Shown in pieces: positions 7,650 to 55,072 of a stretch of 64,000 nt of DNA. Position 1 is the first letter of the stretch; each line of letters starts with the position of its first letter. Location of the stretch: assembly GCA_009837085.1 (NCBI GenBank), contig VXUF01000048.1:14111-78110 (forward strand). The letters are read 5' to 3'. Source of the stretch: Holophagales bacterium (GTDB lineage: Bacteria > Acidobacteriota > Thermoanaerobaculia > Multivoradales > Multivoraceae). Made by a program: the position numbers and the translations under genes. A model generated the notes under the pieces. It did no database searches and had not been told where the DNA came from. It saw nothing but the letters and a program-made list of their open reading frames with translations.

Positions 7650-7663
7650 CGGGCGAGGTAGTC

Positions 7664-7693: not shown

Positions 7694-7719
7694 CGAGCGG
7701 ACCGGTTGCCGACCTTCTC

Positions 7720-23865: not shown

Positions 23866-23877
23866 AGCATCGGCCGC

Positions 23878-29315: not shown

Positions 29316-30571
29316 CCGATAGACACCTGGGACCGTCCGCAGTAGAAACTGGGTGCGCCGGCGTCCCCGCCGGCATCCGGCGCGAAGCGCCGGCTTCCGG
29401 ACCTGTCAATGCGCTGGCGGTCGCTTGCTTGTTGCTTGGCGCCGTCCTGCCGGGATGCGGGAGCTCCGATCCCGAGACCTCGGACGCGGCCGGGGAGATC
29501 GTGCTCGGCACCTACACCGACCTGTCCGGTCCGGCCGCGGCCATCGGTGTCGGCAGCATCAACGCGGCGCGAATGATCTTCGATGCCGTGAACGAGGATG
29601 GCGGCATCCACGGCCGCCAGATCCGCTTCATCGTCGAGGACAATCAGTACCAGGTGCCTCGCGCCGTTCAGGCGGCCAACAAGCTGATCCACCGCGACCG
29701 GATCTTCGCCATGGTGGGCGCCCTCGGGACGCCGATGAACAACGCCGTCATGACCAGCCAGTTCGAGGCGGGCGTTCCGAACATCTTCCCGCTCTCGGGC
29801 GCGCGTTCGATGGCGGAACCGCTGCATCGGCTGAAGTTCGCCGGTGTCTCCACCTACTACGACCAGATGCGCGCCGCCATCAAGTACTTCGTCGAGGAGA
29901 GGGGCAAGGAGCGCATCTGCACCATGACCCAGGACACCGACTACGGAACCGAGATGACCGACGCGGCGAACGATCAGCTCGGCGAGATGGGGCGGGAGGT
30001 CATCGACTCGACGGCCCACAGGCCTCTCGACACCGACTTCAGCGCGGCGATCCTCAAGCTCCGGCAGGCCGACTGCGACCTGATCGTGCTCGGAACGATC
30101 ATCGGCGACACGATCCTGGCGATCTCGGCGGCACGGGGGATCGACTGGGACGTCGACTTCGTCGGCCCGATCGCGGCGTTCGAGTCCGAGGTCGCGGAGG
30201 CGGAGGGCGGTGTGACCAACGGCTTCTTCGCGATGACGTCGTTCGAGTTCCCCTACGCCGATCATCCCAGCCAGGAGGTCCGCGACTTCCTCGCCGGCTA
30301 CGAGGAACGCTACGGCCAGGAGCCCAACACCGGCTCGCTCCTGGGCTGGTTGGTCGCCGACTTCACGGTCAGGGCTCTACGCGACGCCGGGCCGGATCTC
30401 ACGGTCGATTCGCTGGTCGCCGCGATCGAGTCGATCGACGACTACCAGGACATCTTCGGCGGCCCGGTCCTGAGCTTCGGGCCGGAGAAGCGGATCGGCA
30501 CGGACGAGTCGTTCCTCGCCGAGGTACAGGACGGACGCTGGGTACGCGTGACCGAGAACCTGTCCTACTGA
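29312..30571 (+). CDS. ABC transporter substrate-binding protein (Leu/Ile/Val-binding, Peripla_BP_6-like), lipoprotein-like
   Basis: 419 aa. ATG 29312 overlaps the upstream stop (ATGA). The h-region is LAVACLLLGAVLPGC. No alternative in-frame start lies after repeat R6, so the repeat is translated in the n-region. Confidence 0.85.
   Translation: MTDRHLGPSAVETGCAGVPAGIRREAPASGPVNALAVACLLLGAVLPGCGSSDPETSDAAGEIVLGTYTDLSGPAAAIGVGSINAARMIFDAVNEDGGIHGRQIRFIVEDNQYQVPRAVQAANKLIHRDRIFAMVGALGTPMNNAVMTSQFEAGVPNIFPLSGARSMAEPLHRLKFAGVSTYYDQMRAAIKYFVEERGKERICTMTQDTDYGTEMTDAANDQLGEMGREVIDSTAHRPLDTDFSAAILKLRQADCDLIVLGTIIGDTILAISAARGIDWDVDFVGPIAAFESEVAEAEGGVTNGFFAMTSFEFPYADHPSQEVRDFLAGYEERYGQEPNTGSLLGWLVADFTVRALRDAGPDLTVDSLVAAIESIDDYQDIFGGPVLSFGPEKRIGTDESFLAEVQDGRWVRVTENLSY
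29348..29400 (+). repeat. Hairpin repeat copy R6 (short form) inside the 5' coding region of the SBP gene
   Basis: aactgggtgcgccggcgtccccgccggcatccggcgcgaagcgccggcttccgg, translated as TGCAGVPAGIRREAPASG. Confidence 0.85.
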
Positions 30572-34562: not shown

Positions 34563-34568
34563 CCACGC

Positions 34569-38130: not shown

Positions 38131-40993
38131 GGCGGAGCCGGCCTTTCGGCCGGCGCGTGCTTCTGGCCGCCTTCGGCGGCAGCCGGCGGGGACGCCGGCG
38201 CACCCAGTCTGTGCGGCGCGAGGTGCTGGCTGGCTCGTCCTTGGGATCGTGCTTCGGTTGCTCGCGGCCGCGCCCGTCGCGGCCGCCGAGCCGGACGCGC
38301 GCGCCCTCTACCGCCTCCATTGCGGCGGCTGTCACGGGCAGGCGCTCGAAGGCGGGCTCGCGGAGCCGCTGATCAAGTCGGACTGGCGGTTCGGCCGGGA
38401 CGGCTTCTCGGTGGAGAGCAACATCCGGCACGGCATCCCGGGCACCGACATGCCGGGCTACCTCGGCGAACTCTCGAACGAGGAGATGGCGGCGCTCGTC
38501 GAGCTGATCTACAGCCTGCAGACGGAGGAGGTCTGGATCGCGAAGCCGCTGCCGCCGGCGGTCGAGACGGAGCACTACACGCTCCGGGTCGAGTACCTGG
38601 CCACCGACGAACTGGAGAACCCCTGGGGCATCGAGTTCACGGGTCCGTCGGAAGCGCTGATCTCCGAGGACGCGGGGTACCTGATCCGGTACCGGGACGG
38701 CAGGGTGGATCCGGAGCGGATTACGGGGCTGCCGCCGGTTGACCTCGCGACCTCGACCGGCGGGCTGATGGACATCGCGCTCGATCCGGACTATGCGGAG
38801 AACGGATGGGTCTACGCGGCGATCAGCCACTCGGAAGATCCGAACGACCGCTACGCCCGCGGGCTGACCCGGATCATCCGCGGCCGGGTCGACGGCAACC
38901 GCTGGCGGGACACGGAGTACCTCTTCCGGCTCGATCCCGGGTACCACCTGCCCGACAGCAAGCACTGGGGCGGCCGCCTGCTGTTCGACCGCGACGGCTT
39001 CCTCTACTTCTCGATCGGCGACATGAGCGCGGCGATGAACTCGCAGGATCCGGCCATGCCGTCGGGCAAGGTGTTCCGCATCCGGCCCGACGGCGGCATC
39101 CCGGACGACAACCCCTTCGCCGGCCAGGACGGAGCGCTCGGCGCGGTGTTCACTCTCGGCAACCGGAACGTCCAGGGCATGGCGCAGCATCCGGAGACCG
39201 GCGGGATCTGGGCCGCCGAGCACGGTCCGCGCGGCGGCGACGAACTGAATCTCCTCGTCAAGGGCCGGAACTACGGCTGGCCGGTCGTGACGTTCGGCGT
39301 CAACTACGACGGCTCGGTGATCAGCGACCGGACCCGCGCCGACGGCATCGAGCCCCCGGTCGTCGAGTGGACGCCGGCGCTCGCCGTCGGCCCGATCGAG
39401 TTCGTGGCGAGCCCGGCTTTCGAGCAGTGGCGAGGCAACCTGCTGGTCGGTTCGCTCTCCTTCGAGGAACTCCGGCGCCTGGAGCTCGACGGCGGCCGGG
39501 TCACTCGCCAGGAACTCCTGTTCAAGGGCCATGGCCGCATCCGCGACATCAAGACCGGCCCCGACGGCGCGATCTACCTGCTCCTCAACAACCCCGGCGC
39601 CCTGGTCCGCCTGACGGCCGCCGAGACGACCAACGTCACCGCGATCGAACACGCGGCCCTCATCCCGATGACTTCGCGCACGCCGCTCGTGCTGGAGGAT
39701 CACACCCTGGTCGTCCGCGACGAACGGATCGCCGACATCTGCCCCAGCAGCCCAGGCTGCACGCCGGCGGATGCCCGCGTCGTCGACGGCGCCGGCAAGT
39801 TCGTCATCCCGGCGCTCGCCGACATGCACAACCACTTCGATGGCTTCGCCTGGGACGGCACGGACGCCTCACGCATCCGGATGCGCGACCAGAACCTGAG
39901 GCAGTACGTCATGTTCGGGGTCGCCACGGCGAGGGACCCCTCCGGCGGCCCCCTGGTCCTGGAGGCGCGCGACGCGATCGAGCGCGGCGAGCTGTTCGGG
40001 CCGCGGATCTTCGTTTCGTCGCCGCTGATGGACGGCGACCCGCCGCTCTTCCCGATTCCGCGGACGTTCACGGAGCCCGGGGAGGCGGCTGACTTCGTCC
40101 GCCGGAGCGCGGCGGAAGGGTACGACCTGGCCAAGGTCTACACCACGCTCAGCCTCAAGGTGTTCGACGCGGTGATGGCGGCCGCCGCGGAGGTGGGCCT
40201 TACGGTCGCGGCCCACGTGCCGATCCGCGTGCCCCTGGAGCACGCCCTGGAGCGCGGGCTGCGCTCGATCGAGCACCTGACCGGCTACGACGTCGCCTGC
40301 GCGGCCCCGCACGTGAAGATGGAGCCGGTCCGGCAGGACATCTACCAGGGCTGGGCGTGGTGCTCGCCGGAGAAGGTGGCCGAGCTGGCGGCGCTGACCG
40401 CGAAGTACGAGGTCTGGAACGTGCCGACCCTCGCCCTGTGGGACAGCACGGTGACCGAGTTCGACCGGCCGCAGCGCGACGCGGGCGAGATCGGCAAGTA
40501 CGAGCACCCGACGACGCCCGGCGGCATCGAGTGGCTCTACACCCTGTACGGACCGCGCGAGCGGGCGGGGATCACCGGGACGCGCTCGGTGCGGCTCGGC
40601 CTGGTCAAGGCGCTCCACGACGCGGGCGCGCCGCTCCTCGTCGGCACCGACATCTCGGCCACCGGCTATACCGTCCACCGGGAGATGGGCCTCTTCGTCG
40701 AGGCCGGCCTGACGCCGTACCAGACGCTGGAAGCCGCGACCTCGGAGGCGGCCCGCTACATGGACCGGGAAGGCGAGTTCGGGGTGCTCGCCACGGGCGC
40801 GCGGGGCGACGTTCTGCTCCTGGACGCGAACCCGCTCGACGACATCGGCAACGCACGTAGGATCCGCGGCCTGATGTTCCGCGACAGGTGGTGGTCGAAG
40901 CAGGCGATCGACGCCGAGCTGGAAGCGATCCAGCGCGAGTACGCGGAAGACGAGGCGCGTCTGCGGGAACTGGGGATCGGACCGCGGCCGTGA
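38120..40993 (+). CDS. Three-domain fusion: cytochrome c + PQQ-dependent sugar (glucose/sorbosone) dehydrogenase + amidohydrolase, exported
   Basis: 957 aa. CGGCH at about aa 68-72. The sGDH-like six-blade region runs about aa 150-500 (ENPWGIEF, GGLMDIALDP, HWGGRLLFDRDGFLYFSIGD, GKVFRIRPDG, GNRNVQGMA, EHGPRGGDELN, GRNYGWP). The amidohydrolase runs from about aa 505 (ADMHNHF, AAHV, IEHL, VGTD). GTG 38120 overlaps the upstream gene. Confidence 0.85.
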   Translation: MRTRAEPAFRPARASGRLRRQPAGTPAHPVCAARGAGWLVLGIVLRLLAAAPVAAAEPDARALYRLHCGGCHGQALEGGLAEPLIKSDWRFGRDGFSVESNIRHGIPGTDMPGYLGELSNEEMAALVELIYSLQTEEVWIAKPLPPAVETEHYTLRVEYLATDELENPWGIEFTGPSEALISEDAGYLIRYRDGRVDPERITGLPPVDLATSTGGLMDIALDPDYAENGWVYAAISHSEDPNDRYARGLTRIIRGRVDGNRWRDTEYLFRLDPGYHLPDSKHWGGRLLFDRDGFLYFSIGDMSAAMNSQDPAMPSGKVFRIRPDGGIPDDNPFAGQDGALGAVFTLGNRNVQGMAQHPETGGIWAAEHGPRGGDELNLLVKGRNYGWPVVTFGVNYDGSVISDRTRADGIEPPVVEWTPALAVGPIEFVASPAFEQWRGNLLVGSLSFEELRRLELDGGRVTRQELLFKGHGRIRDIKTGPDGAIYLLLNNPGALVRLTAAETTNVTAIEHAALIPMTSRTPLVLEDHTLVVRDERIADICPSSPGCTPADARVVDGAGKFVIPALADMHNHFDGFAWDGTDASRIRMRDQNLRQYVMFGVATARDPSGGPLVLEARDAIERGELFGPRIFVSSPLMDGDPPLFPIPRTFTEPGEAADFVRRSAAEGYDLAKVYTTLSLKVFDAVMAAAAEVGLTVAAHVPIRVPLEHALERGLRSIEHLTGYDVACAAPHVKMEPVRQDIYQGWAWCSPEKVAELAALTAKYEVWNVPTLALWDSTVTEFDRPQRDAGEIGKYEHPTTPGGIEWLYTLYGPRERAGITGTRSVRLGLVKALHDAGAPLLVGTDISATGYTVHREMGLFVEAGLTPYQTLEAATSEAARYMDREGEFGVLATGARGDVLLLDANPLDDIGNARRIRGLMFRDRWWSKQAIDAELEAIQREYAEDEARLRELGIGPRP
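38131..38213 (-). repeat. Hairpin repeat copy R10 (long form, inverted) inside the 5' coding region of the fusion gene
   Basis: The reverse complement reads cacagactgggtgcgccggcgtccccgccggc tgccgccgaaggcggc ... gccggccgaaaggccggc. In the gene frame it is translated as AFRPARASGRLRRQPAGTPAHPV. Confidence 0.9.
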
Positions 40994-42435
40994 GCGAAGG
41001 CGCGCCCCAGTCCCTGCGCTCAGGCGCGCTCGGCCTCTGGGGCGTCGTGTTCCTGGTCGTCGGCTCGGCGGCGCCGCTGACGTCGATGATGGGCGCGGTG
41101 CCGCCGCCGCTGTCGATCGGCAACGGCATCGGCGCGCCCGGGGCCTGGGTGCTGACGGGTCTGGTGCTGACCCTGTTCGCGGTCGGCTACGCGACGATGA
41201 GCCGGTTCGTCACGAACGCCGGCGCGTTCTACGCCTACATCGCGCGCGGCCTCGGGCGGCCGGCGGGCCTGGGGGGCGCGCTGGTGGCCGTCCTCTCCTA
41301 CAACACGATCCAGTGCGCGCTTTGGGGGCTGTTCGGCTTCTTCTCCGTGAACATCCTGAATCCCAAGCTGGGCGTCGACGTCGCTTGGTACTGGTGGTCC
41401 TTCGTGCTGATGGCGATCACCGCGGTGCTCGGCTACTTCGGGATCGAGATCTCGGCCAGGGTCCTGGGCGTGCTGCTGATCCTCGAGGTCCTCGTCCTCC
41501 TGGTGCTCGACGTCGCCGTCGTGTTCACCGGCGGCGCGAGCGGCCTCCAACTCAACTCGTTCAACCCGGCCGAGATCTTCTCGGGCGCGCCGGGGGTGAC
41601 CTTCGTCTTCGCCTTCGCGACGTTCGTCGGCTTCGAGGCGACCGCGATCTACGGCGAAGAGACCCGGGATCCGAAGCGCACCGTGCCGCGGGCGACCTAC
41701 GTGGCGGTGGCGATCATCACCGTCTTCTACGCCCTGACCTCCTGGTCGATCGTCCAGGCCTACGGCGAGGACGAGGCCGTCGCCGCGGCCACCGGGAATC
41801 CGGACGGGCTGTTCCTGGACGCGAGTGCGAGCTACGTCCACCCGCTGTCGGCGAGCATGATGGAGTGGCTCATCCTCACCTCCATCTTCGCCGCCCTGCT
41901 GGCGTTCCACAACGCGGCCGCGCGCTACTTCTACGCGATGGCGCGGGAGGGCCTGCTGCCGCGGCGGATCGCCCGCACCCACCCGCGCTACGGCTCGCCC
42001 TACCTCGCCGGACTCCTGCAGGCCGAGGTCGCCTTCGTCATCACGCTGGTCTTCGTGCTGGCCGGACTGGATCCGTACGCCGGCCTGTTCGCCTGGCTGA
42101 GCGGCATCGCGGCGCTGGGGATCATCGGCCTGCAGTGCCTGACCTCGCTGTCCGTCATCGCGTTCTTCCGGCGGACCGGTCTGGACGCGCGGCCGTGGCA
42201 CACGAAGGTGGCGCCGGGGCTGGGCGCGCTCGGCCTGGCGGCGGCGATGGTGTTCGTCGTCGTCAACTGGGACGCGCTGACCGGGGCGAGCACCGGCCTG
42301 GTCGGCTCGCTGTGGGCTGCCGTGCCGATCTTCTTCGTGTGCGGCGTCGTCTGGGCCGCCGCCATCCGCCGCCGCGACGCCGCGGCCTACGAACGCCTGG
42401 GCCACTTCATCGACGAATCACCGGACGCGGCGTAG
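40990..42435 (+). CDS. APC superfamily amino acid/polyamine permease
   Basis: 481 aa from GTG 40990 (GTGA overlap with the upstream stop). About 12 TM helices, with GAPGAWVLTGLV...GYATMS and the FVGFEATAIYGEE motif. Confidence 0.9.
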   Translation: MSEGAPQSLRSGALGLWGVVFLVVGSAAPLTSMMGAVPPPLSIGNGIGAPGAWVLTGLVLTLFAVGYATMSRFVTNAGAFYAYIARGLGRPAGLGGALVAVLSYNTIQCALWGLFGFFSVNILNPKLGVDVAWYWWSFVLMAITAVLGYFGIEISARVLGVLLILEVLVLLVLDVAVVFTGGASGLQLNSFNPAEIFSGAPGVTFVFAFATFVGFEATAIYGEETRDPKRTVPRATYVAVAIITVFYALTSWSIVQAYGEDEAVAAATGNPDGLFLDASASYVHPLSASMMEWLILTSIFAALLAFHNAAARYFYAMAREGLLPRRIARTHPRYGSPYLAGLLQAEVAFVITLVFVLAGLDPYAGLFAWLSGIAALGIIGLQCLTSLSVIAFFRRTGLDARPWHTKVAPGLGALGLAAAMVFVVVNWDALTGASTGLVGSLWAAVPIFFVCGVVWAAAIRRRDAAAYERLGHFIDESPDAA

Positions 42436-45838: not shown

Positions 45839-45850
45839 GGTTCGACGCAC

Positions 45851-46654
45851 ATGCCACTCAAGGGCTACAGCGGCCCCCTCTCCGCCAGCGGTCGCGGCGG
45901 CCTCGTGCCGGCGCCGCCCTGGCACTACTCCTGCGACTTCCTGATCGTCGAGTACCGCACCGATGCGGACGCGATCACGGCCCTGCTGCCGGCGGAGCTC
46001 GAGCCGGCCGAGCGGCCGGACATGGCCTGCGTCATCTTCGCCGACTGGCAGTCCTGCTCCGACGATCTGCACGAACTGGAGGACCCGATCCAGTCCCAGT
46101 ACAAGGAGTACTTCATCGTCGTCGGCGCCAGCTTTCAGGGCGAGCCGGTCTCGCGTTGCGTCTACATCTGGGTCGACAAGGACTTCGCGATGTTCCGCGG
46201 CTGGGTGCAGGGCTTCCCGAAGAAGCTCGGCTCGATCCACATGACCCGCAGCTTCGAGGTCGGCAAGGCGGCTTGCCGGCTCGCCCCCGGCGCCCGCTTC
46301 GGGGCGACCTGCACCGCCAACGACCGCCAGATCGTCCGCGCCGTCGTCGAGCTCGAGGGGATCAGCGAGACGGGGCCGACGGTGAACGCTCCGCCGATGT
46401 TCAACACGCGCCACTTTCCGGCCGCCGCCGGGCTCGAACCCACGGTGTTCGAGATGGTTCGCGCCGGCGGCTACGACCGGGACTCGACCGACGTCTGGGA
46501 AGGGCCGGCCACGCTGGCCTTCGGCGAGGACACGCTGGAGGACCTGCAGGCGATCGCGCCGCGCGAGGTGCACTGCGGCTTCCGGTTCTCCTTCGCCTAC
46601 AGCGTCGACGGCGTGGAGGTCGTCGGACCGCATGACCGGGAGCAACTGCGATGA
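45851..46654 (+). CDS. Acetoacetate decarboxylase (ADC) family protein
   Basis: 267 aa. The N-terminal PAPPWHYSCDFLIVEYRTD and the beta-cone-sized length fit the ADC family by recollection. Confidence 0.75.
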   Translation: MPLKGYSGPLSASGRGGLVPAPPWHYSCDFLIVEYRTDADAITALLPAELEPAERPDMACVIFADWQSCSDDLHELEDPIQSQYKEYFIVVGASFQGEPVSRCVYIWVDKDFAMFRGWVQGFPKKLGSIHMTRSFEVGKAACRLAPGARFGATCTANDRQIVRAVVELEGISETGPTVNAPPMFNTRHFPAAAGLEPTVFEMVRAGGYDRDSTDVWEGPATLAFGEDTLEDLQAIAPREVHCGFRFSFAYSVDGVEVVGPHDREQLR

Positions 46655-47442
46655 GACATGAGCGCCGCGCCGGCGACGGCACCTGGCTGCCTCCGATCGA
46701 TCCGCCGTCGAAGATCATCGCCGTCCACCTGAGCTACCGCTCGCGCTGCGTCGAGTACCAGATGGAGCGCATCCCGGAGGTGCCGTCCTACTTCATGAAG
46801 CCCACCTCCTCGCTGAGCGCCCACGAGGCGCCGGTGGCGCGGCCGCGCGGCTGCCGCTTCCTGAACTACGAGGGGGAGTTCGCGGTCGTCATCGGCCGGC
46901 GGGCGATCGGCGTGGCGATCGAGGAGGCGCTCGACTATGTCCGCGGCTACACGCTGGTCAACGACTTCGGCATCCATGACTTCCGGCACGCGGACCGCGG
47001 CTCGATGCTGCGGGTCAAGGGCCAGGACGGCTTCGGGCCGATGGGCCCGGCCCTGGTCGACGCCGGCGACGTCGACCCGAACGACCTGACACTGCGCACC
47101 CTGGTCAACGGCGAGGTGGTGCAGGAGGGGAACACGGGCGAGGACCTCCTGTTCTCGTTCGCGTACCAGGTCGCCGACCTGAGCCGGCTGATCACGCTCG
47201 AACCCGGCGACGTCATCATGACCGGCACGCCGGCGAACTCGCGGCCGGTCGAGCCGGGCGACGTGGTCGAGGTGCAGTGCGACGAGATCGGCACCCTGCG
47301 CAACCCGATCGTCGAGCTGGACCGGGACCTGCAGCCGGTCGGCGAGCAGCCCCAGGTGACCGGCAACACGCTGCACGTCGCGCTCTGCGTGCCGGAGGAC
47401 GAGGCGGAGGTCGTCGCGGCGGCGGAGGCGGCGGGCTCGTGA
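46651..47442 (+). CDS. Fumarylacetoacetate hydrolase (FAH) family protein (HpaG/2-oxo-dienoate hydratase/isomerase-decarboxylase type)
   Basis: 263 aa. YFMKPTSS, NYEGEFAVVIG, NDFGIHDF..KG.DGF.PMGP and PGDVIMTGTP motifs. ATGA overlap with the upstream stop. Confidence 0.9.
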   Translation: MRHERRAGDGTWLPPIDPPSKIIAVHLSYRSRCVEYQMERIPEVPSYFMKPTSSLSAHEAPVARPRGCRFLNYEGEFAVVIGRRAIGVAIEEALDYVRGYTLVNDFGIHDFRHADRGSMLRVKGQDGFGPMGPALVDAGDVDPNDLTLRTLVNGEVVQEGNTGEDLLFSFAYQVADLSRLITLEPGDVIMTGTPANSRPVEPGDVVEVQCDEIGTLRNPIVELDRDLQPVGEQPQVTGNTLHVALCVPEDEAEVVAAAEAAGS

Positions 47443-48974
47443 CGGCCGACGCGACACTGGGTGCGCCTGCGTCCTCGCCGGCATCTGGCGCTGGTGAGGA
47501 GCGAACCGACGTTGAGGGCGTCGCCGTTCCGACCGGCCATCTGATCGGCGGCCGGCGGGTCGGCGCCGGCGCCGGCTTCGAGGTGCGCTCGCCGATCGAC
47601 TGGGAATGGAAGCTGGCCGAGTTTCCCGAAGCGGGGGCGGTGGAGGTCGACGCCGCCGTCGACGCCGCGCGGGGGGCGTTCCCGGACTGGGCGGCGCTGG
47701 GACCGGAGGGACGCGCGCCGTACCTGCTGCGCCTGGCTGCCGGGGTCGAACGGCGGGCCGCCGAGATCGCCCAGGTCGAGACGGTCGACAACGGTTCGCT
47801 GCTGGAAGCGATGCGCGAGCGGGTGATTCCGCGCGGCGGGATGAACTTCCGCTTCTTCGCCGAGTACGCGGTGTCGCGTCTGGCCGAGCCGTCGCGGATC
47901 CTGCATGGCGGCGAGCGGAACACGGTCCGCCACGATCCGGCCGGCGTCGTCGCGGTGTCGACGCCGTGGAACGCGCCCTTCATGCTGGCGACCTGGCGGG
48001 TCGGCCCGGCCCTCGCCGCGGGCAACACCGTGGTCCTCAAGCCGCCGGAGTGGGCGCCGCTGACGTGCTCACTGCTAGGCGATCTGGCGGAGGAGGCGGG
48101 GCTGCCGCCGGGCGTGCTCAACATCGTCCACGGCGGGCCGGAGACCGGCGCGATGCTGACCGGCCACGCCGGCGTCGACCGGATCGCCTTCACCGGATCG
48201 CCGGCCACTGCCCGCACGGTCGGCGCCGCGGCCGCGGCGGAGTTGACGCCCGTCTCCTTCGAACTCGGCGGCAAGTCGCCGTTCCTCGTCTTCGCCGACG
48301 CCGACCTGGAGGCCGCTGCCCGCACCGCGGCGTACCAGTACGACAACTCAGGCCAGGTCTGCCTGGCCGGCACCCGGTTGCTAGTGGAGCGGAGCTGCCT
48401 CGACGCCTTCATGGAGCGGTTCCTGGCGGAAGTCGAGGCGATCCGGGTCGGCGATCCGCGGGAGGCCGCGACGACCTACGGTCCGCTGATCCACCCGCGG
48501 GCGCTTTCGCGGGTCGAGGCACACGTCGAGAAGGCGCTGGCCCAGGGCGCGGCGCTCCGCTTCGGCGGCAAGAGCAGCGGCGGGCTCTACTTCCCGCCGA
48601 CGCTGTTCACCGACGTGCCGTCCGGCGCCGACATCCTGCGCGAGGAGGTGTTCGGGCCGGTGCTGACCCTGCAGGCGTTCGAGGACGACGACGAGGCGAT
48701 CGCGTTGGCCGAGTCGACGGACTACGGGCTCGCCACGATGATCTTCACCGGCGACGAGTCCCGCGCGGGCCGGCTCTCGCGCCGGATCAGCGCCGGCACG
48801 ATCTGGGTGAACTGCTTCTACGTCCGCGACCTCGAGACGCCCTTCGGCGGGACGAAGCACTCCGGCATCGGCCGCGAGGGCGGGCGGCATTCGTTCGACT
48901 TCTACTGCGACGTGAAGACGGTCTGCGAGCGCACTGCCGCGTTCGCGGCCGCCGGGACAGGAGGTGGCTCGTGA
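47439..48974 (+). CDS. NAD+-dependent hydroxymuconic-semialdehyde-type aldehyde dehydrogenase (HpaE/XylG-like)
   Basis: 511 aa from GTG 47439 (GTGA overlap). NFRFFAEY, STPWNAPF, FTGSPATAR, ELGGKSP, catalytic Cys SGQVCLAG, and C-terminal VRDLETPFGGTKHSGIGREGGRHSFDFY, which closely resembles HpaE-type enzymes. Repeat R11 is translated near the N-terminus. Confidence 0.9.
   Translation: MTADATLGAPASSPASGAGEERTDVEGVAVPTGHLIGGRRVGAGAGFEVRSPIDWEWKLAEFPEAGAVEVDAAVDAARGAFPDWAALGPEGRAPYLLRLAAGVERRAAEIAQVETVDNGSLLEAMRERVIPRGGMNFRFFAEYAVSRLAEPSRILHGGERNTVRHDPAGVVAVSTPWNAPFMLATWRVGPALAAGNTVVLKPPEWAPLTCSLLGDLAEEAGLPPGVLNIVHGGPETGAMLTGHAGVDRIAFTGSPATARTVGAAAAAELTPVSFELGGKSPFLVFADADLEAAARTAAYQYDNSGQVCLAGTRLLVERSCLDAFMERFLAEVEAIRVGDPREAATTYGPLIHPRALSRVEAHVEKALAQGAALRFGGKSSGGLYFPPTLFTDVPSGADILREEVFGPVLTLQAFEDDDEAIALAESTDYGLATMIFTGDESRAGRLSRRISAGTIWVNCFYVRDLETPFGGTKHSGIGREGGRHSFDFYCDVKTVCERTAAFAAAGTGGGS
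47453..47491 (+). repeat. Hairpin repeat copy R11 (short form) inside the aldehyde dehydrogenase 5' coding region
   Basis: gacactgggtgcgcctgcgtcctcgccggcatctggcgc. It shares the cctgc arm variant with R5. Confidence 0.85.
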
Positions 48975-49969
48975 TCCGCGGCATCCACCACGTCGGGCTT
49001 GCCGTCACCGACCTCGCCGAGGCCTCGGCGCGCTGGCGGCGGCTGCTCGGCCTGACCCTGGCCGGAGACGACGGTGCCTCACCACTGGGTGCGCCGGCGT
49101 CCCCGCCGGCTGCCGCCGCAGGCGGCCGGGAGACGCGCGAGGCGCAAGCCTCGCTCCCTTCCGCCCTGCTCCGCTGCGCCTATGAAGACTTCTGCGTCCG
49201 CCTGACCGCCGGCGACCGAGGCTGCGTCGACTACATCGCCTACGAACTCGAAGCCGGCGTGACGCTGGCCGAGGCCGGCGGCCGGCTGTCCGACGCCGGA
49301 ACGCTCGCCGTGCCCTTCGAGCTGCCGGCCGGCCGGTTCGGGTTGCGCACCGCCGACCCGGACGGCAACGGCGTGGCCGTCGTCGAGCACGTTGCGCCGA
49401 ACGACCCGCGTCCCGACGTCTGCAAGCACTCGGACACCCTGCCCGGCTTCCATCCGCGCCGGCTCCAGCATGTGAACTACCTCACTGCCGACACCCCGCG
49501 CGCCGTCGACTGGTACGTCGAGGCTCTCGGCCTCAAGATCACCGACTGGATCGGCGACGACGCCTGCTGGCTCCACGCCGACCGCGACCATCACGTGCTC
49601 GCCTTCCTCGACAAGGGCTATGCCCACATCCACCACGTCGCCTTCGAACTGACCGACTGGGGCGAGATGCGGGTCGGCCTTGATCACCTGGCGGCCCACC
49701 GGCGACCGATCGTCTGGGGGCCCGGCCGCCACGGCATGGCCCGGAACCTGTTCGCCTACTGGCGGATGCCCGAGGAGGACACGTTCATCGAGTTCTTCGC
49801 CGACATGGAAGTGCTCGGCCCGAACCACCAGGTCCGCCACTTCCCGGACGATGCCTTCGCCTCGAACACCTGGGGTCAGCTCCCCCCGCGGTCCTACTTC
49901 CGGTTCGACGAAGAAGCGATCCGCGCCGAGTGGGAGCAGTCGCAGCAACTGGGCGATCCGCTCTCGTAG
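48971..49969 (+). CDS. Type I extradiol ring-cleavage dioxygenase (two-module VOC fold) carrying an in-frame repeat insertion
   Basis: 332 aa from GTG 48971 (GTGA overlap). N-terminus IRGIHHVGLAVTDLAEASARWRRLLGL. Putative 2-His-1-carboxylate ligands lie in LQHVNY, HIHHVAFEL and FIEFFAD. Residues about 37-65 are encoded by repeat R12. Confidence 0.85.
   Translation: MIRGIHHVGLAVTDLAEASARWRRLLGLTLAGDDGASPLGAPASPPAAAAGGRETREAQASLPSALLRCAYEDFCVRLTAGDRGCVDYIAYELEAGVTLAEAGGRLSDAGTLAVPFELPAGRFGLRTADPDGNGVAVVEHVAPNDPRPDVCKHSDTLPGFHPRRLQHVNYLTADTPRAVDWYVEALGLKITDWIGDDACWLHADRDHHVLAFLDKGYAHIHHVAFELTDWGEMRVGLDHLAAHRRPIVWGPGRHGMARNLFAYWRMPEEDTFIEFFADMEVLGPNHQVRHFPDDAFASNTWGQLPPRSYFRFDEEAIRAEWEQSQQLGDPLS
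49080..49156 (+). repeat. Hairpin repeat copy R12 (long form) inserted in-frame within the dioxygenase gene
   Basis: caccactgggtgcgccggcgtccccgccggc tgccgccgcaggcggc ... gcgaggcgcaagcctcgc, translated as SPLGAPASPPAAAAGGRETREAQASLPSA. Confidence 0.9.
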
Positions 49970-50004
49970 ACCGCTTCCCGCCGCAGGCGTTGGGGTAGTC
50001 GTCA

Positions 50005-50068
50005 CCGGCCTTCGGCCGGCGGCTGTGTTGGTTCGGAAGGCCGACGAGGACGTCGGCGCACCCAGTAG
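50005..50068 (-). repeat. Hairpin repeat copy R13 (divergent long form), head-to-head with R14
   Basis: The reverse complement reads ctactgggtgcgccgacgtcctcgtcggc...ccggccgaaggccgg. Hairpin A arms have changed to gccgac/gtcggc. Confidence 0.8.
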
Positions 50069-50077
50069 CACCGCCAG

Positions 50078-50151
50078 CACCCACTGGGTGCGCCGGCGTC
50101 CTCGCCGGCTGCCGCCGAACGCGGCTGGAGAACGCCGCCGCGAAGCGGCGA
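50078..50151 (+). repeat. Hairpin repeat copy R14 (long form)
   Basis: cacccactgggtgcgccggcgtcctcgccggc tgccgccgaacgcggc ... cgccgcgaagcggcg. Confidence 0.85.
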
Positions 50152-50274
50152 CGACACTGCGAGCGGCCTGATACGGTGCCTCGGCACAGATGGCGTCAGC
50201 CAAGCGTGAGGGGCCGCAAGCAACCCGGAGCGACCGCTGGCGTCCGCCCGCCTGGATTCGTCTAGTGGAAGGTC

Positions 50275-51774
50275 ATGCCGATGCAACCCACTCGACGCGA
50301 TCTTCTGGCCAGGAGCGCCGCCGTGGCGGCCGTGGCCGCGCTGCCGCCGCTCCGCGCAACCTTCGGCCAGACCGCTCCGGCCGACGAGGGCCCCGGCGCC
50401 ACCGACCTGCAGCGCGACCTCGAACAGGCGATCGCGCGTCACCGGGTCATCGGCGCGAGCGCGGCCGTCTACCACGCCGGTGAGATCGAGACCGCGTCGG
50501 CCGGGATCCTGAACGCGACCACTGGCGTCGAGGTCACCCCCGAAACGGTGATGCACATCGGTTCGATCACGAAGACCCTGAACACGACCCTGGTCATGCA
50601 ACTCGTCGACGAAGGTCTGGTCGACCTCGACGCGCCGGTGCTCGACTACGTGCCCGACTTCGCGGTCGCCGACCCGGAAGCGACCCGGGCGATCGAGGTC
50701 GGCATGCTGCTCAACCACACGAGCGGCATCGACGGCGAAATGATCCCCGACCACGGCCCCGATCAGGAGGCCATCCTTCAGGCGGTCGAACGCGCCCGCG
50801 ATCTCGGCCAACTGTTCGCTCCCGGCGAGGACTGCTCGTACTGCAACACGGCGATGGTGGTCGCCGGCCACGTCGCCGAACGGGTGCTCGGGGACAGTTG
50901 GTACAACCTGATCGAGGACCGCATCTTCGGCCGCATCGGTCTGGAGCACTCGGTGGTCCAGCCCCAGGATGCCCTGCTCCACCGCGCCTCCGTCGGCCAC
51001 TTCCTCGATCCGGCCACCGGCACGCAGCAGAGGACGTCGAAGGCCTTCCTGCCGCTGAGCTTCGCTCCGGCCGGCTCCACCGCCATGATGTCGGCGCCCG
51101 ACCTGCTCGCCTTCGTCGCCGCCCACCTCCGCGGCGGCGAGGGACTGAACGGCGAGCGCCTGCTGTCGGAGGACAGCTCGAAGGCGATGCGCACCGCCAC
51201 CGCCGCGGTCCAGGGGATCGGCGCCGTTCGCTCCTTCGGCCTCGGCTTCATGCTCGGTCCCAACGGCGACTTCGGCCACGGCGGCGGCGGCCCGGGCATC
51301 CTCTCCTGGTTCTCGGCGCACGAGGAGTCCGACTTCGCGATGGTCGTCCTGACCAACTCGGCGCACGGCGGCCTGGTCGCCTTCGAGCTCGTGAACGCCT
51401 GGATGAAGAAGGCCTCCGGCTTCGAGCCGCTGGCGGCGCAGCGGTTCCCGCCGCTCGACATCGAGATCGATCCGCGGCTCTACGCCGGCGTCTACGAGGA
51501 CGTCGCCGCCGAGCACACGATCACCGAGCGCGACGGCCGCCTGAGCGTCAGTTCACGCGCCAAGGTCGCCTTCTACGACACGACCTCGACCGACGCGACG
51601 CCGGCCTTCCCGCTCGACCCGGTGGGCGAGCACTCCTTCGTCGTCTCCCTGCCGGAGGCGATCGCGGCCACCGCGCCGCAGACTCTCCTGTCGTTCGTCA
51701 ATCCGCAGGCCGACGGGCGGATGCGGCATGTGTCGACGGGTGGGCGGCTCTACCTGAGGCGAAGCGGGTCCTGA
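50275..51774 (+). CDS. Serine hydrolase, beta-lactamase/transpeptidase-like (class C family), Tat-exported
   Basis: 499 aa. Twin-arginine-like signal MPMQPTRRDLLARSAAVAAVAAL. SxxK as SITK, and YxN as YCN. Confidence 0.85.
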   Translation: MPMQPTRRDLLARSAAVAAVAALPPLRATFGQTAPADEGPGATDLQRDLEQAIARHRVIGASAAVYHAGEIETASAGILNATTGVEVTPETVMHIGSITKTLNTTLVMQLVDEGLVDLDAPVLDYVPDFAVADPEATRAIEVGMLLNHTSGIDGEMIPDHGPDQEAILQAVERARDLGQLFAPGEDCSYCNTAMVVAGHVAERVLGDSWYNLIEDRIFGRIGLEHSVVQPQDALLHRASVGHFLDPATGTQQRTSKAFLPLSFAPAGSTAMMSAPDLLAFVAAHLRGGEGLNGERLLSEDSSKAMRTATAAVQGIGAVRSFGLGFMLGPNGDFGHGGGGPGILSWFSAHEESDFAMVVLTNSAHGGLVAFELVNAWMKKASGFEPLAAQRFPPLDIEIDPRLYAGVYEDVAAEHTITERDGRLSVSSRAKVAFYDTTSTDATPAFPLDPVGEHSFVVSLPEAIAATAPQTLLSFVNPQADGRMRHVSTGGRLYLRRSGS

Positions 51775-51789
51775 TCGGCACCAGGACTG

Positions 51790-52434
51790 TCAAGACATAG
51801 CGAGTTCACGTTCCGTCGCAGGGGAAACCGGTCCCTCGAGAACGGCCGCCATCGCGTCCAGCAGCGTTTCGAAGAACAGTTCGGCATCGGGTCCGTCGAA
51901 GCTGCCGCCGGAGAGCGCGCGCTGAGCGAGCGCCAGCGCCGCCATCCGGTGCATCAGGTCGAACCGCCGGTCCGCCAGCGCCCTGGGGATCCGAAGCTGC
52001 GCGCGGATGCGCTTCGCCACCTCCCCCACCCCCGCGCCCGTGTAGCGGGTCGCGCCCTCGCGGAGCTCCTCGCCGGGTAGAAACACGAGCTGCCCGATCA
52101 CCTTCAGGAAGAGCGCGAACTCCGGATCCCGTCGGGCGATCCGCACCGGAGGCATGACCGCCACCTCGCACAACCGGCGCACGTCCTGAACCCCGCCGGC
52201 CTCATCCAGCTCGCGCAGCATGTGCTCCCGCTCTTCCCCGATCTGCGCGCCGCGCTTGACGTACATGGCGTCGATGAGCCCTTCGCGGCCGCCGAAGTGG
52301 TACTGGAGGGCCGATTCGTTGCGTTGGCCCGCTTCGCGCAGGATGGCGCGAGTGGAGGTCGGCCCGACGCCCTGCTCGGCGAACAGCTTCTCGGCGGCGC
52401 GAAGGATCTTCTCTCGCGTGCTAATGACTTCCAT
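51790..52434 (-). CDS. TetR/AcrR family transcriptional regulator
   Basis: 214 aa. N-terminal HTH REKILRAAEKLFAEQGVGPTSTRAILREAGQRNESALQYHFG. Confidence 0.9.
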   Translation of the reverse strand: MEVISTREKILRAAEKLFAEQGVGPTSTRAILREAGQRNESALQYHFGGREGLIDAMYVKRGAQIGEEREHMLRELDEAGGVQDVRRLCEVAVMPPVRIARRDPEFALFLKVIGQLVFLPGEELREGATRYTGAGVGEVAKRIRAQLRIPRALADRRFDLMHRMAALALAQRALSGGSFDGPDAELFFETLLDAMAAVLEGPVSPATERELAMS

Positions 52435-52439
52435 CAGAA

Positions 52440-52456
52440 CTAATGATAGACATTAG
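52440..52456. promoter_or_regulatory. Candidate TetR operator: CTAATG-N5-CATTAG palindrome in the tetR/sulfatase divergent region
   Basis: ctaatgatagacattag is a 17-bp AT-rich dyad in a 40-bp intergenic gap of an otherwise GC-rich region. A third half-site gctaatg lies at 52420-52426. Confidence 0.45.
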
Positions 52457-52474
52457 CAGACGAGGTTCAGAGCG

Positions 52475-55072
52475 ATGAGACCCGGGTTCATCTTCAGCCG
52501 ACGAAGGAGGCGCCGTGGCGGTCTGCGAGTCCTGGCGGCGACGCTCGCGGCGGTCGCGGCCCTTCAGGCGTCGGCGTCGACGGCAGCGGAATCCGAGGCC
52601 CCGGCCTCACCCCGGCCGAACGTCGTCGTCGTGGTCGCGGACGACGTCGGCTTCACGGACCTGGGCGCGTACGGCAGCGAGATTCGCACCCCCCACATCG
52701 ACGCGATCGCCTCGCGCGGCGTCCTCTTCACGAACTTCCACGCCTCGCCGATGTGCTCGCCGTCGCGGGCCATGTTGCTCACCGGGGTCGACTCGCACCT
52801 GACCGATGTCGCCAGCCTGCACGTGGCCACGCCGCTTCGTCATCGCGGCCGACCCGGCTACCGAGGCGAGTTGAGCACGGACGTGATCACGATCGCCAGC
52901 CGCCTGCGCGCCGCCGGCTACCGCACGTACCTGAGCGGCAAGTGGAACCTCGGTCACGCTCCGACCTCGCTGCCCAGCGCGCGCGGGTTCGATCGGACGT
53001 TCGCGCTTGACGCCACCGGCGCCGACAACTTCGAGAAGAAGCCCTACCTGCCGATCTACGGGGAGCCCCCCTGGTTTGCCGACGGCGAACCGACCGACCT
53101 GCCGGACGACTTCTACTCGTCGGAGCACCTCGTGGACAGGCTCGTCGAGTTCATCGACACGGATCGGGTCACGGATGGGGAGCGACAACCGTTCTTCGCC
53201 TACCTCGCCTTTCAGGCGGTCCACCTGCCGGTTCAGGCGCCGCGCGAGTTCATCGAGGGCTACGAGGGCGTGTACGACGAAGGATGGGACGCGCTGCGGA
53301 GGGAGCGTCATCGCGGCGCCGTCGAAGCGGGCGTCTTTCCGCCCGGGGCCGTAGCGTCGACCACGCCCGAGCAGGCGGACTGGGAGGCTCTCTCGCCCGG
53401 CGAGAAGGCGTTCGCCGCCAAGAACATGGCGGTCAACGCGGCGATGCTCGAAGCGATGGACCATCACTTCGGGCGGTTGGTCGAGTACCTCGGGAACGAG
53501 GGACTCCTGGAGAACACCGTCTTCGTGGTGCTGTCCGACAACGGTCCGGAGGCGGGTGACCCGGCGCAGAGCGGTCAGTTCGACCGGTGGGCGAAGCGCG
53601 TCGGCTACCGCCGCGACCTCGAGACGCTCGGTGAGAAGGGGAGCTACGGCATCATCGGCCCGCACTTCGCGCGGGCGGCGGCCGCTCCGCTCGCGTACTA
53701 CAAGTTCCACGGCGGAGAGGGAGGAATTCGCGTTCCCCTGATCATCGCCGGGCCGGGGGTGGAGGCGCGAGGGATCGCTCCGGCCTTCACCTTCGTGACG
53801 GACCTGGTTCCCACGATTCTCGAGCTCACCGGCGCGGGCGACGCCACTCCGTCCGGCAAGCATCCCATCGATGGCCGCAGCCTGGCCCCGGCGCTGCGCG
53901 ATCCTTCGGCCCTGGTCCATCCGTCGCATGAGGCGGTCGGATTCGAGACGGCGGGCCACAGGGGCGTCTTCAAGGGCGACCACAAGCTCGTTCGGGTCGG
54001 CGCTCCCGTGGGCGATGGCCGCTGGCGCCTGTTCGATCTGGCGGAGGACCCGGGCGAGACCCGCGACCTGGCCGCGGAACAACCCGAGCGGTTCTCCGAG
54101 ATGCTGGCGGACTACGAGGCCTACGCCGAGCGCGTGGGAGTGCTCGAGGTGCCTGCCTTCTACTCGCCGACTCGACAGCTAGCGATCAACTACTTCTACG
54201 ACCGCGCAAAGGAGACCTTCATGAAGACCAGGGTATGGACCGGAGCAGGGCTGGCCGTCGTCGTGCTGGCGGCCGCCGTCTGGCTGGGTTTGCCGAGGGT
54301 GCTCGTCGGCCTGGGCCTTCACGCCCACTATGAGATTCCCGCGATCGATCTCGCCGGCCACCGCGCCCTCATCGTGACCACCAGCCACGACACGCTGGGC
54401 GACTCGGGCAAGGCGACCGGCGTCTGGGCGTCGGAGATGACGGTGCCCTACTACGCATTCACGGACGCCGGAATGACGGTCGACGTGGCGAGCATCCAGG
54501 GCGGCGCCATCCCGGTCGAGCGCCAGTCGGTGCGGTGGCCGGTGGCCACGCCGGAGGACAAGCGCTATCTCCGGGATGCGGAGTTTCGATCCAGGGTCGA
54601 GAACTCGTTGGCGATCGCCGACGTGGACGGCAGCGCCTACGACATCGTGTTTCTGGCAGGCGGCTGGGGCGCCGCGTACGACCTCGGCCAGTCGGAAGAA
54701 CTGGGCAGGAAGGTCAGCGAGGCGTACGCCCGCGAATCGGTAGTCGGCGGCGTGTGCCATGGTCCGCTGGGACTGCTTCAGGCGGTGACTCCGGGCGGAG
54801 AACCGCTGGTGCGGGGCCGCCGCGTCTCGGCCGTTTCGGACAAGCAGATCGAGGAACTCGGCATCACCTTCACGCCGATGCACCCGGAGCGTGACCTGCG
54901 CGCCGCCGGAGCGCTGTTCGAGAGCGAGACCAGGTTTCGCGACATGCTCGCGAGCCGCGTCGTCGTCGACGGGCGCCTGGTGACCGGTCAGAACCAGAAC
55001 AGCGGCGCCGAAACGGCGCATCGCATGATGGAGGTTCTGCTGGGGTCGCGGCCGGCCTACGCCGAGAAGTAG
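52475..55072 (+). CDS. Sulfatase (formylglycine type) continuing in-frame into a TM-anchored DJ-1/PfpI (class I glutamine-amidotransferase-like) domain
   Basis: 865-aa uninterrupted ORF. Signal region SRRRRRRGGLRVLAATLAAVAAL. NVVVVVADDVGFTDLG and CSPSR. From aa 583 it reads MKTRVWTGAGLAVVVLAAAVWLGL (TM), then a DJ-1/PfpI-like domain with nucleophile elbow GGVCHGP. Confidence 0.8.
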   Translation: MRPGFIFSRRRRRRGGLRVLAATLAAVAALQASASTAAESEAPASPRPNVVVVVADDVGFTDLGAYGSEIRTPHIDAIASRGVLFTNFHASPMCSPSRAMLLTGVDSHLTDVASLHVATPLRHRGRPGYRGELSTDVITIASRLRAAGYRTYLSGKWNLGHAPTSLPSARGFDRTFALDATGADNFEKKPYLPIYGEPPWFADGEPTDLPDDFYSSEHLVDRLVEFIDTDRVTDGERQPFFAYLAFQAVHLPVQAPREFIEGYEGVYDEGWDALRRERHRGAVEAGVFPPGAVASTTPEQADWEALSPGEKAFAAKNMAVNAAMLEAMDHHFGRLVEYLGNEGLLENTVFVVLSDNGPEAGDPAQSGQFDRWAKRVGYRRDLETLGEKGSYGIIGPHFARAAAAPLAYYKFHGGEGGIRVPLIIAGPGVEARGIAPAFTFVTDLVPTILELTGAGDATPSGKHPIDGRSLAPALRDPSALVHPSHEAVGFETAGHRGVFKGDHKLVRVGAPVGDGRWRLFDLAEDPGETRDLAAEQPERFSEMLADYEAYAERVGVLEVPAFYSPTRQLAINYFYDRAKETFMKTRVWTGAGLAVVVLAAAVWLGLPRVLVGLGLHAHYEIPAIDLAGHRALIVTTSHDTLGDSGKATGVWASEMTVPYYAFTDAGMTVDVASIQGGAIPVERQSVRWPVATPEDKRYLRDAEFRSRVENSLAIADVDGSAYDIVFLAGGWGAAYDLGQSEELGRKVSEAYARESVVGGVCHGPLGLLQAVTPGGEPLVRGRRVSAVSDKQIEELGITFTPMHPERDLRAAGALFESETRFRDMLASRVVVDGRLVTGQNQNSGAETAHRMMEVLLGSRPAYAEK
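54221..55072 (+). CDS. Possible independently initiated DJ-1/PfpI family protein (nested in-frame in the sulfatase ORF)
   Basis: ATG 54221 is preceded by aaggag at 54209-54214 (6-nt spacing). It would give a 283-aa protein with an N-terminal TM/signal anchor. Confidence 0.45.
   Translation: MKTRVWTGAGLAVVVLAAAVWLGLPRVLVGLGLHAHYEIPAIDLAGHRALIVTTSHDTLGDSGKATGVWASEMTVPYYAFTDAGMTVDVASIQGGAIPVERQSVRWPVATPEDKRYLRDAEFRSRVENSLAIADVDGSAYDIVFLAGGWGAAYDLGQSEELGRKVSEAYARESVVGGVCHGPLGLLQAVTPGGEPLVRGRRVSAVSDKQIEELGITFTPMHPERDLRAAGALFESETRFRDMLASRVVVDGRLVTGQNQNSGAETAHRMMEVLLGSRPAYAEK

Follow-up and report, generated by a model that had tools for sequence, protein, structure and literature searches.

An in-frame palindromic repeat in an extradiol dioxygenase gene of uncultivated Acidobacteriota: a probable passenger loop with filled and empty alleles

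The 64,000-nt stretch of DNA analyzed here (the window; G+C content 67.8%) belongs to contig VXUF01000048.1 of an assembly labelled Holophagales bacterium. In it, the gene for a type I extradiol dioxygenase is 87 nt longer than the same gene in close relatives, and the additional nucleotides are a copy of a dispersed palindromic repeat. We consider it very probable that this is a tolerated, translated in-frame insertion, similar in kind to repetitive extragenic palindromic (REP) sequences and Rickettsia palindromic elements (RPEs), that adds a passenger loop to a functional dioxygenase. A mobile REP-like palindromic element of about 78 nt, abundant in a clade of Thermoanaerobaculia, would have entered the gene and lengthened it by exactly 87 nt (29 codons) at a point between Gly35/Ala36 and Leu66; the ribosome would read through it, and the resulting peptide would be a passenger that leaves the enzyme functional. 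Such an insertion could be tolerated because its length is a multiple of three, because it has no stop codon in any sense frame, and because it landed in a predicted surface loop of the non-catalytic N-terminal domain. The features discussed are located in Table 1; L-numbers denote homologous loci or contig stretches from other genomes, and P-numbers homologous proteins.

The dioxygenase open reading frame (ORF) starts at a GTG that overlaps the TGA of the upstream aldehyde dehydrogenase gene (GTGA) and ends with a TAG. It reads ...RWRRLLGLTLAGDDGA[SPLGAPASPPAAAAGGRETREAQASLPSA]LLRCAYEDF..., with the insert in the inner brackets, exactly as quoted in the initial annotation, which was made from the sequence alone. 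That annotation proposed an in-frame insertion of a full-length repeat, and alleles with an empty site establish it. The 90%-identity cluster to which the window protein belongs has members of 332 and 328 amino acids (aa) and others of 303-307 aa. The shorter ones, among them the 303-aa MXX74420.1 (P0129), share 94-97% identity with the window protein, lack exactly 29 residues here, and read ...RLLGLSPAADDG/ALLRCAYEDF... (empty site ...DDG/ALLRC). At the DNA level the window junction GGT GCC / TCACCACTGGG...CTCCCTTCC GCC / CTG corresponds to GGC GCC CTG in the empty locus L129 (VXSP01000012.1), a clean 87-nt difference with only the GCC triplet common to both sides. The edges of the insertion are therefore ambiguous by 3 nt, and within this ambiguity the coordinates first proposed for it are right.

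The same insert is found at the same place in five assemblies from different projects: the window, L135, L053 (COS3_bin_14, about 95% identical to the window), L136, and L001 (about 91%). It is a multiple of three, in frame, and stop-free in 5/5 of these filled alleles; L001 has in addition a 12-nt deletion beside the insert, which also keeps the frame. Among 121 aligned homologs the segment from L28 to L66 comprises 5-14 residues (mode 9) in 119, as against 37 in the window protein and 33 in the close relative P0001. A homologous 29-residue segment in distant orthologs would have counted against the initial interpretation, but the segment is confined to the closest relatives. Closer dioxygenase relatives were also sought in metagenome contigs, where none exceeded 55% identity; the informative ones came from the listing of the 90% cluster.

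Table 1. Features of the dioxygenase locus (positions in the window)
Feature	Position	Strand	Evidence
Extradiol dioxygenase gene (type I, two-domain, HpaD/HPCD-like), 332 aa	48971..49969	+	translation, Pfam, NCBIfam, AlphaFold2, Foldseek, phmmer against 1f1x
In-frame insertion relative to empty alleles, 87 nt, 29 codons, aa 37-65	49079..49165	+	alignments with empty L129, L002 and filled L053, L001; protein alignment; pLDDT 51-64
Repeat element proper: conserved head CACTGGGTGC, three G+C-rich hairpins, tail CTCGCTCC(CTT)	49083..49160	+	alignment with 33 other copies; core search; RNA fold
Hairpin 1, GCCGGCG-TCCC-CGCCGGC	49093..49110	+	7/7 pairs hold in all 34 aligned copies; invariant in five filled alleles
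Hairpin 2, GCCGCC-GCA-GGCGGC	49112..49126	+	copy alignment and filled-allele comparison
Hairpin 3, GCGAGGC-GCAA-GCCTCGC, minority allele	49137..49154	+	stems invariant, loop variable among filled alleles
HpaE-like aldehyde dehydrogenase gene, 511 aa, translationally coupled to both neighboring genes	47439..48974	+	Pfam Aldedh aa 47-495; NCBIfam HpaE best match from aa 33
Second in-frame repeat insertion, 54 nt, 18 codons, short one-hairpin copy	47447..47500	+	empty versus filled alleles; edges alignment-dependent
Head-to-head repeat pair downstream of dioxygenase gene, intergenic	50034..50161	.	minus copy head 50048-50067, plus copy 50082-50161

The host enzyme is a two-domain protein with Pfam matches to Glyoxalase_4 (aa 6-33) and Glyoxalase (aa 164-261). 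Its top NCBIfam model is HpaD (aa 71-310 against profile positions 46-294), and it has about 37 residues where profiles expect about 17. The score falls well below the curated cutoff of the HpaD equivalog TIGR02295 (92.8 bits against 321.4). We accordingly call it HpaD-like from its closest model and from its HpaE-like and HpaG-like neighbors, with a putative substrate specificity, and regard it as a candidate member of an HpaG/HpaE/HpaD-type meta-cleavage cluster. The reference for residue assignments was the homoprotocatechuate 2,3-dioxygenase (HPCD) of B. fuscum/A. globiformis (1f1x). In the phmmer alignment, H167, H222, and E274 of the window protein match His155, His214, and Glu267 of that enzyme, and H208 and Y263 match its catalytic His200 and Tyr257. 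All five residues are invariant across the 121 homologs. The 2-His-1-carboxylate triad and the catalytic His and Tyr of type I extradiol dioxygenases are thus present in the C-terminal domain, and both the frame and the metal-ligand motifs are intact, as the initial annotation had said.

Where does the extra peptide lie? The AlphaFold2 model, for which the alignment of 121 sequences was used (mean predicted local distance difference test score [pLDDT] 90.6, predicted template modeling score 0.89) has two tandem domains made of beta-alpha-beta-beta-beta modules, the architecture of type I (vicinal-oxygen-chelate) dioxygenases. Its top Foldseek matches are 3b59, catechol 2,3-dioxygenases, BphC, and HPCD (TM 0.66-0.80, E down to 8e-22). 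The blocks flanking the insert have pLDDT values of 96-97, and residues ~31-63, between helix 15-26 and strand 64-68, only 51-64; in the model the insert thus falls in a loop of low confidence that joins helix 1 to strand 2 in the N-terminal domain. The insert is a Gly/Ala/Pro/Ser-rich segment and is probably disordered. Predicted protein stretches from this region include ...ETREAQASLPSALLR, a tryptic peptide across ETR/EAQASLPSALLR, and another from LLGLTLAGDDGASPLGAPASPPAAAAGGR. The receiving module had initially been described as catalytic, and this has to be corrected: by homology and in the model, the insert would sit in the first beta-alpha-beta-beta-beta module of the non-catalytic N-terminal domain, and the metal site in the C-terminal domain, to which the catalytic and metal residues align. 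The N-terminal domain of this enzyme class carries no metal, as seen in BphC and HPCD structures. The location of the insert in a metal-free domain makes its tolerance easier to understand.

The gene that carries the insert is under purifying selection. A comparison of the window with L001 over the 295 codons that lie outside the insert gives 0.25 synonymous substitutions per site (dS) and 0.044 nonsynonymous ones (dN), a dN/dS of 0.18, and the C-terminal domain differs by three amino acids. A ratio this low between two insert-bearing lineages indicates a gene that is probably functional, in line with the initial view. The 29 codons of the insert itself have a dN/dS of 1.16; the peptide is thus free to drift. 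All alleles keep the start codon, the GGAGG upstream of it, and the GTGA coupling to the dehydrogenase gene. Beyond the insert, no canonical start codon occurs in frame before the GTG at codon 97, and initiation there would lose the whole first module; the catalytic domain can therefore be obtained only by read-through of the insert. We infer from these sequence comparisons that the insert is translated and that the enzyme is functional.

The 87 nt belong to direct and inverted repeat families of the window that reach 75-93 nt. The 20-mer repeat core CACTGGGTGCGCCGGCGTCC has 14 matches in the window with at most three mismatches, against 0.04 expected from shuffles, and the dioxygenase copy can be aligned along its whole length, about 78 nt, to over 30 copies found in other genomes. 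A full copy has a conserved head, (CA)CACTGGGTGC, and after it as many as three G+C-rich hairpins. Hairpin 2 has the family form GCCGCC-GNA-GGCGGC, and hairpin 3 occurs in three self-complementary versions (GCCGGCC/GGCCGGC, CGCCGC/GCGGCG, and GCGAGGC/GCCTCGC). In an alignment of 34 copies, 96.7% of the cells pair, and three hairpin 3 pairs change on both sides. The GCGAGGC/GCCTCGC version in the dioxygenase is not a case of in-situ compensatory evolution, because other copies of the family have the same stem allele. The number of modules varies within the family: of 208 copies sampled, one hairpin is present in 64, two in 72, and three in 46.

An exact 26-mer scan of 185,579 species genomes returned at least 104 stretches; among the matches listed, all are in Acidobacteriota metagenome-assembled genomes (MAGs) labelled Thermoanaerobaculia, Candidatus Multivorans, 'Holophagales', or 'Acidobacteria bacterium'. 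Judging by isolate names, several of these hosts look sponge-derived. Most sampled copies lie outside clear coding flanks. Copies with a coding immediate 150-nt flank (L003-L106 and the window) lie next to the 5' end of a gene roughly twice as frequently as next to a 3' end. Inverted doublets are frequent, with one at 50048(-)/50082(+) in the window and many plus/minus pairs 50-150 nt apart in L010, L011, L028, L029, L040, and L065. All six frames of the repeat consensus are stop-free. At about 80% G+C this is expected, and so it is not evidence of adaptation. Truncated 'head-only' copies, head-to-head fusions (CACACTGGGTGCGCCGGCGTCCCCAGTGTG), and duplicated heads beside full copies also occur (window 7660-7700 and 1690-1740; L011 ~5066), and suggest recombination or abortive events at the element head.

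The initial annotation likened the insertion to the behavior of RPEs, and further in-frame copies in other genes bear this out. The clearest is in the adjoining dehydrogenase gene, where empty alleles confirm an insertion directly after the second or third codon, in the same repeat frame as the dioxygenase copy (TLGAPASSPA). The site is empty in L129, L053, L131, L133, and L134 and filled in the window, L001, L135, and L136; the protein has 493 aa at empty loci against 511 aa in the window. No in-frame ATG, GTG, or TTG occurs between 47439 and the conserved HLIGG of the dehydrogenase. Elsewhere, intragenic copies were counted only where no downstream start codon is possible. An ORF that stays open through the repeat was dropped as a sign of an intragenic copy, since at this G+C content the consensus is open in every frame.

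In the window, a full three-hairpin copy (~32013-32093, frame 2, TLGAPASSPAAAAGG...) lies in a gene for an S9/DPP-IV-type peptidase (ORF from GTG 31941 to 34562), between the hydrophobic core of the signal peptide and the mature domain, with no canonical start for more than 60 codons downstream. An amidohydrolase lipoprotein gene (34563-36350) has a full copy at ~34580-34660 in frame 3 (MRRRPRR...), and its only in-frame starts are a GTG in the repeat head or one just upstream. Two short copies, both in frame 1 (...TGCAGVPAGIR...), fall in signal-peptide n-regions: one (36377-36414) in another amidohydrolase, the other (29345-29400) in a periplasmic binding lipoprotein. By their sequence context, the copies in the peptidase, amidohydrolase, and binding-protein genes probably lie in coding 5' regions. 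Positively charged n-regions formed by the repeat have the same arrangement in other species (L016, L093, and L098). Just past another repeat copy (~23868-23910), a LivH-like permease ORF (...SQLLQVLVNG...) has no obvious canonical start, CTG being the nearest candidate.

In Candidatus Multivorans, internal in-frame copies occur in the GT2 domain of a glycosyltransferase (L028 ~7251-7330, frame 3) and in the linker between membrane domain and ATPase of an ABC exporter (L035, minus strand, ~354 from the end, frame 1). Codons have thus apparently been added in frame to the S9 peptidase, to signal-peptide n-regions, to the GT2 glycosyltransferase, and to the ABC exporter, and all three sense frames of the repeat are used in different genes. 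Strictly internal copies in domain-bearing ORFs were flagged at four loci (the window, L001, L028, and L035) among 172 copies with enough flank to classify. The window and L001 copies are the same dioxygenase insertion, leaving three distinct events. An antisense 'internal' match in a squalene-hopene cyclase gene (L087) is only a partial 20-nt match and was not counted. The dioxygenase gene itself has a further site. In L053 (5027-5100), L134, and L136 another copy overlaps its 3' end, from the native CAACTGGG, and turns the C-terminus ...QQLGDPLS-stop into ...QQLGARV(L/F)-stop, the TGA stop coming from the loop of a hairpin-1 variant. In L133 the 3'-end copy lies a few codons later (...APLGTRVF-stop).

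How and when did the insert arrive? Eleven alleles were scored at three repeat sites: the dehydrogenase N-terminus (A), the interior of the dioxygenase (B), and the dioxygenase 3' end (C). A and B are filled and C is empty in the window, L135, and L001. All three are filled in L136, B and C in L053, and C only in L134 and, at a different position, in L133. All three are empty in L129 and L131. B and C are empty in L132, in which the dehydrogenase is deleted, and in L137, in which A was unscored. Each of three sites within one 3-kb stretch is thus polymorphic, and the patterns are mutually incongruent. In trees of the dioxygenase gene (872 columns) and of the upstream 1.5 kb, L001 is an outlier, 8-10% from all others; the remaining alleles form a star at 4-7%, in which the window and L135 are 1.7-1.9% apart.

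Several observations weigh against the simplest form of our interpretation. Presence and absence of the insert do not fit the gene tree: filled alleles were monophyletic in 0/500 bootstraps, and the most divergent lineage, L001, is filled while closer lineages are empty. Nor are the usual marks of a mobile element evident. In the alignment of copies the two ends of the element did not form terminal inverted repeats, and neither the dioxygenase nor the dehydrogenase insert showed a convincing target-site duplication, the flanks offering only the 3-nt GCC at the former and a possible GACGCG at the latter in L136; on these grounds a transposable element of the miniature inverted-repeat type (MITE) seems less likely. 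As for a mobilizing enzyme, a crude HUH...Y regular-expression screen over ~0.95 Mb of fetched loci, less than 1% of the genomes, found no credible REP-associated tyrosine transposase (RAYT). Finally, the stems of the insert are invariant beside a drifting peptide, which a passive passenger does not predict (see below).

A single insertion followed by simple vertical inheritance is consequently not supported, L001 being an outlier in both regions, and the account needs either precise losses or recombination as well. The scenario that we favor from the sequence comparisons is one old insertion that would predate the L001 split, followed by clean loss in some lineages or by recombination. It is favored because the filled alleles share both the position and a rare element variant (head CACCAC, hairpin 2 plus a GCGAGGC-type hairpin 3), and because the insert has diverged between L001 and the window (10/81) as much as the gene has. 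The insert could be lost through slippage from one flanking GCC triplet to the other across the hairpins, or a transposase could excise it. Separate targeted insertions are less probable.

The same allele pattern could also be read as the work of an element that is active now and site-selective, either gained repeatedly or excised seamlessly by a transposase in the 'peel and paste' manner of IS200/IS605-RAYT, so that the insert would be a transient visitor. We judge this unlikely, but with enough in its favor to be taken seriously: the gene trees intermix filled with empty alleles and have a filled outlier in L001, the three polymorphic sites in 3 kb are incongruent, and the empty sites are perfectly clean. 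In addition, the intergenic spacer between the stop of the amidohydrolase gene and the cytochrome c/GSDH gene (38131-38215) contains a three-hairpin copy in opposite orientations in two genomes that are about 91% identical (window 38137-38211, minus; L001 1359-1434, plus), which points to ongoing turnover, and the copies at the dioxygenase 3' end in other genomes join exactly where native CTGGG matches the element head. On the other hand, the shared rare variant and position argue for one origin, the divergence of the insert matches the age of the lineage split, and recombination among populations that are ~5% diverged, or GCC slippage, explains the pattern without a transposase. The crude screen, moreover, turned up no RAYT-like ORF in the sampled loci.

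The stems raise a different question, namely what, if not the peptide, is being conserved. Among the five filled alleles, variable positions number 0/40 in stem nucleotides and 15/47 in unpaired ones (Fisher one-sided p = 2.9e-5); for the window and L001 alone the corresponding figures are 0/40 and 10/41 (p = 6e-4). Thirteen stem positions are third-codon positions, and the window and L001 agree at every one of them. With a dN/dS of about 1.2 for the insert peptide, the protein is not what is constrained. Two explanations could account for this: selection on DNA or RNA structure, or homogenization by gene conversion or hairpin-templated repair from other copies.

The first of these implies that the element is kept for a nucleic-acid function and that the peptide is a by-product. 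Its hairpins could act in the mRNA (stability, processing, or translation pacing ~110 nt past the coupled start) or in DNA as recognition sites for a transposase or recombinase. We think this rather improbable. In its favor, beyond the stem invariance, stem sequences covary across the repeat family, and the closing pair of hairpin 1 at the L001 dehydrogenase site is swapped from G-C to C-G. Copies near gene 5' ends that are open into the downstream coding region are predominantly sense (62 against 23 antisense), and the dioxygenase copy region folds as RNA with a minimum free energy of -55.2 kcal/mol. That fold, however, has a z of only -2.2 against shuffles. Gene conversion from hundreds of copies, or templated repair within a hairpin, would keep stems just as well, the window dehydrogenase copy has a disrupted hairpin 1 stem (GCCTGCG), and relatives that do equally well often have empty alleles, which makes the element dispensable. 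Known signals do not account for it either: a whole-window scan at gathering thresholds gave no Rfam family for the repeat, which is therefore not a known RNA, and a scan of 48500-50400 gave no promoter-like or terminator-like signal in the insert, which is thus neither an intrinsic terminator nor a sigma-70 promoter.

A bolder proposal, which we hold to be doubtful, would combine these elements and make the repeat a 'coding-competent' replicator, with hairpins under selection inside ORFs, seamless exit from ORFs, and recurrent recruitment by hosts as protein sequence. The recruited forms would be Arg-rich/AGIRR n-regions, GTG starts, N-terminal extensions, internal loops, and C-termini with a hairpin-loop stop. 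If true, the family would be a standing source of reversible protein-length variation in sponge-associated Acidobacteriota.

It is very improbable that the insert is bypassed or removed before it reaches the protein, as in the hopping of T4 gene 60 or the mitochondrial 'byp' elements of Magnusiomyces. The very stable local structure and the lack of constraint on the peptide would suit such a mechanism, but bypassed elements need no frame preservation, and here the insert is in frame, stop-free, and a multiple of three in all five alleles, as are the 54-nt dehydrogenase insert and the 12-nt L001 deletion; there is also no evident pair of take-off and landing codons. Least tenable of all is an artefact or decay. 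Assemblers can be misled by repeats, and the source DNA is metagenomic, but five assemblies made independently in different projects, which carry the insert at the same site with lineage-specific substitutions, exclude a chimera, and the intact ORF under purifying selection, with its nearly unchanged C-terminal domain, argues against a pseudogene. The reading that we retain is therefore that of a tolerated insertion that is read through as a passenger loop.

The surroundings of the gene are variable as well. The dehydrogenase gene lies between the FAA-hydrolase and dioxygenase genes. In L132 (2885-3001) it is almost wholly deleted, its start being fused to its last ~100 nt, and in L131 (1817-3004) it is shortened to 395 aa, so that the cluster is decaying in some relatives with the dioxygenase still intact. 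Downstream of the dioxygenase gene, a beta-lactamase-family gene (window 50275-51774) is on the plus strand in the window, L131, L132, L133, and L135, inverted in L053, L129, L134, and L136, and absent in L001; the inversion is also seen in genomes without repeats at that border. Three segments of the window (39620-41011, 45839-46630, and 49975-55057) are missing from the otherwise collinear L001. One of them codes for an MppR/acetoacetate-decarboxylase-like protein (45839-46651) that some relatives have and others lack.

The phenomenon as such is already known from RPEs and intragenic REPs; what is new is the repeat family, of which a literature search found no published description, the host clade, and the empty-allele controls. 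In-frame palindromes are best known from Rickettsia, and this case extends them to high-G+C uncultivated Acidobacteriota of sponges and sediments. Natural filled and empty alleles of one enzyme at 94-98% identity make the effect of the loop on the enzyme directly measurable. Invariant stems in a coding region beside a drifting peptide are a sharp, testable signal that sets nucleic-acid constraint or gene conversion against protein constraint. In genome annotation, the family accounts for the unusual N-terminal extensions and the length variants that many proteins of these MAGs show. The features most worth following up are the absolute stem conservation within a coding region, the series of filled and empty alleles, and the pattern of gain and loss.

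The closest precedent in behavior is that of the RPEs (Ogata et al. 2000, 2002), as summarized in PMC10969869 and PMC3733652. Both are dispersed palindromic repeats that lie between genes and, in frame, inside many unrelated and functional ones, and the peptide segment that each adds is predicted to fit the protein fold. The likeness is one of behavior only, and membership of the RPE-1 to RPE-10 families is implausible, as is any sequence relationship, because composition, length, and phylum differ: ~80% G+C and ~78 nt in Acidobacteriota, against an A+T-rich RPE-1 of ~150 nt. RPEs are described as coding a conserved peptide in one frame, whereas the present family is used in three sense frames with a neutral peptide, and its stop-free state is expected from base composition alone.

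In several phyla, intragenic REPs of the GTAG/CGTC super-families code for 20-30 aa (Di Nocera et al. 2013, PMC3733652). Like them, the present repeat is a short, G+C-rich, imperfect palindrome in high copy number (14 per 64 kb, with the related-genome stretches reported above), mostly extragenic, often in inverted pairs, and sometimes wholly within ORFs. Its head, CACTGGGT, has no GTAG or CGTC tetranucleotide, CGTC appearing only at the stem-loop junction of hairpin 1; its unit is modular, with one to three different hairpins; and its copies cluster at gene 5' ends, whereas classical REPs are reported to prefer 3' ends. The caution in PMC3733652 that N-terminal intragenic cases are often misannotations applies to this family too, but the N-terminal case in the dehydrogenase is verified by empty alleles.

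MITEs with in-frame fusions (ERIC, Correia/NEMIS, QMITE; reviewed in PMC10969869) resemble the element in size range, in being non-autonomous, and in occasional translational fusions, and differ in the termini and target-site duplications discussed above. With the REPIN/RAYT system (Bertels and Rainey 2011, PMC3116915) it shares vertically persistent populations of hairpin repeats, head-to-head doublets, and long-term stem conservation, although many of its copies occur singly and have three distinct hairpins instead of a pair of inverted REPs. A conserved head that looks single-stranded beside covarying hairpins, frequent head-to-head doublets, and no clear terminal inverted repeats or target-site duplication make it resemble RAYT-mobilized REP/REPIN sequences more than MITEs, and by this analogy the element would be REP-like in how it works while standing outside the REP family.

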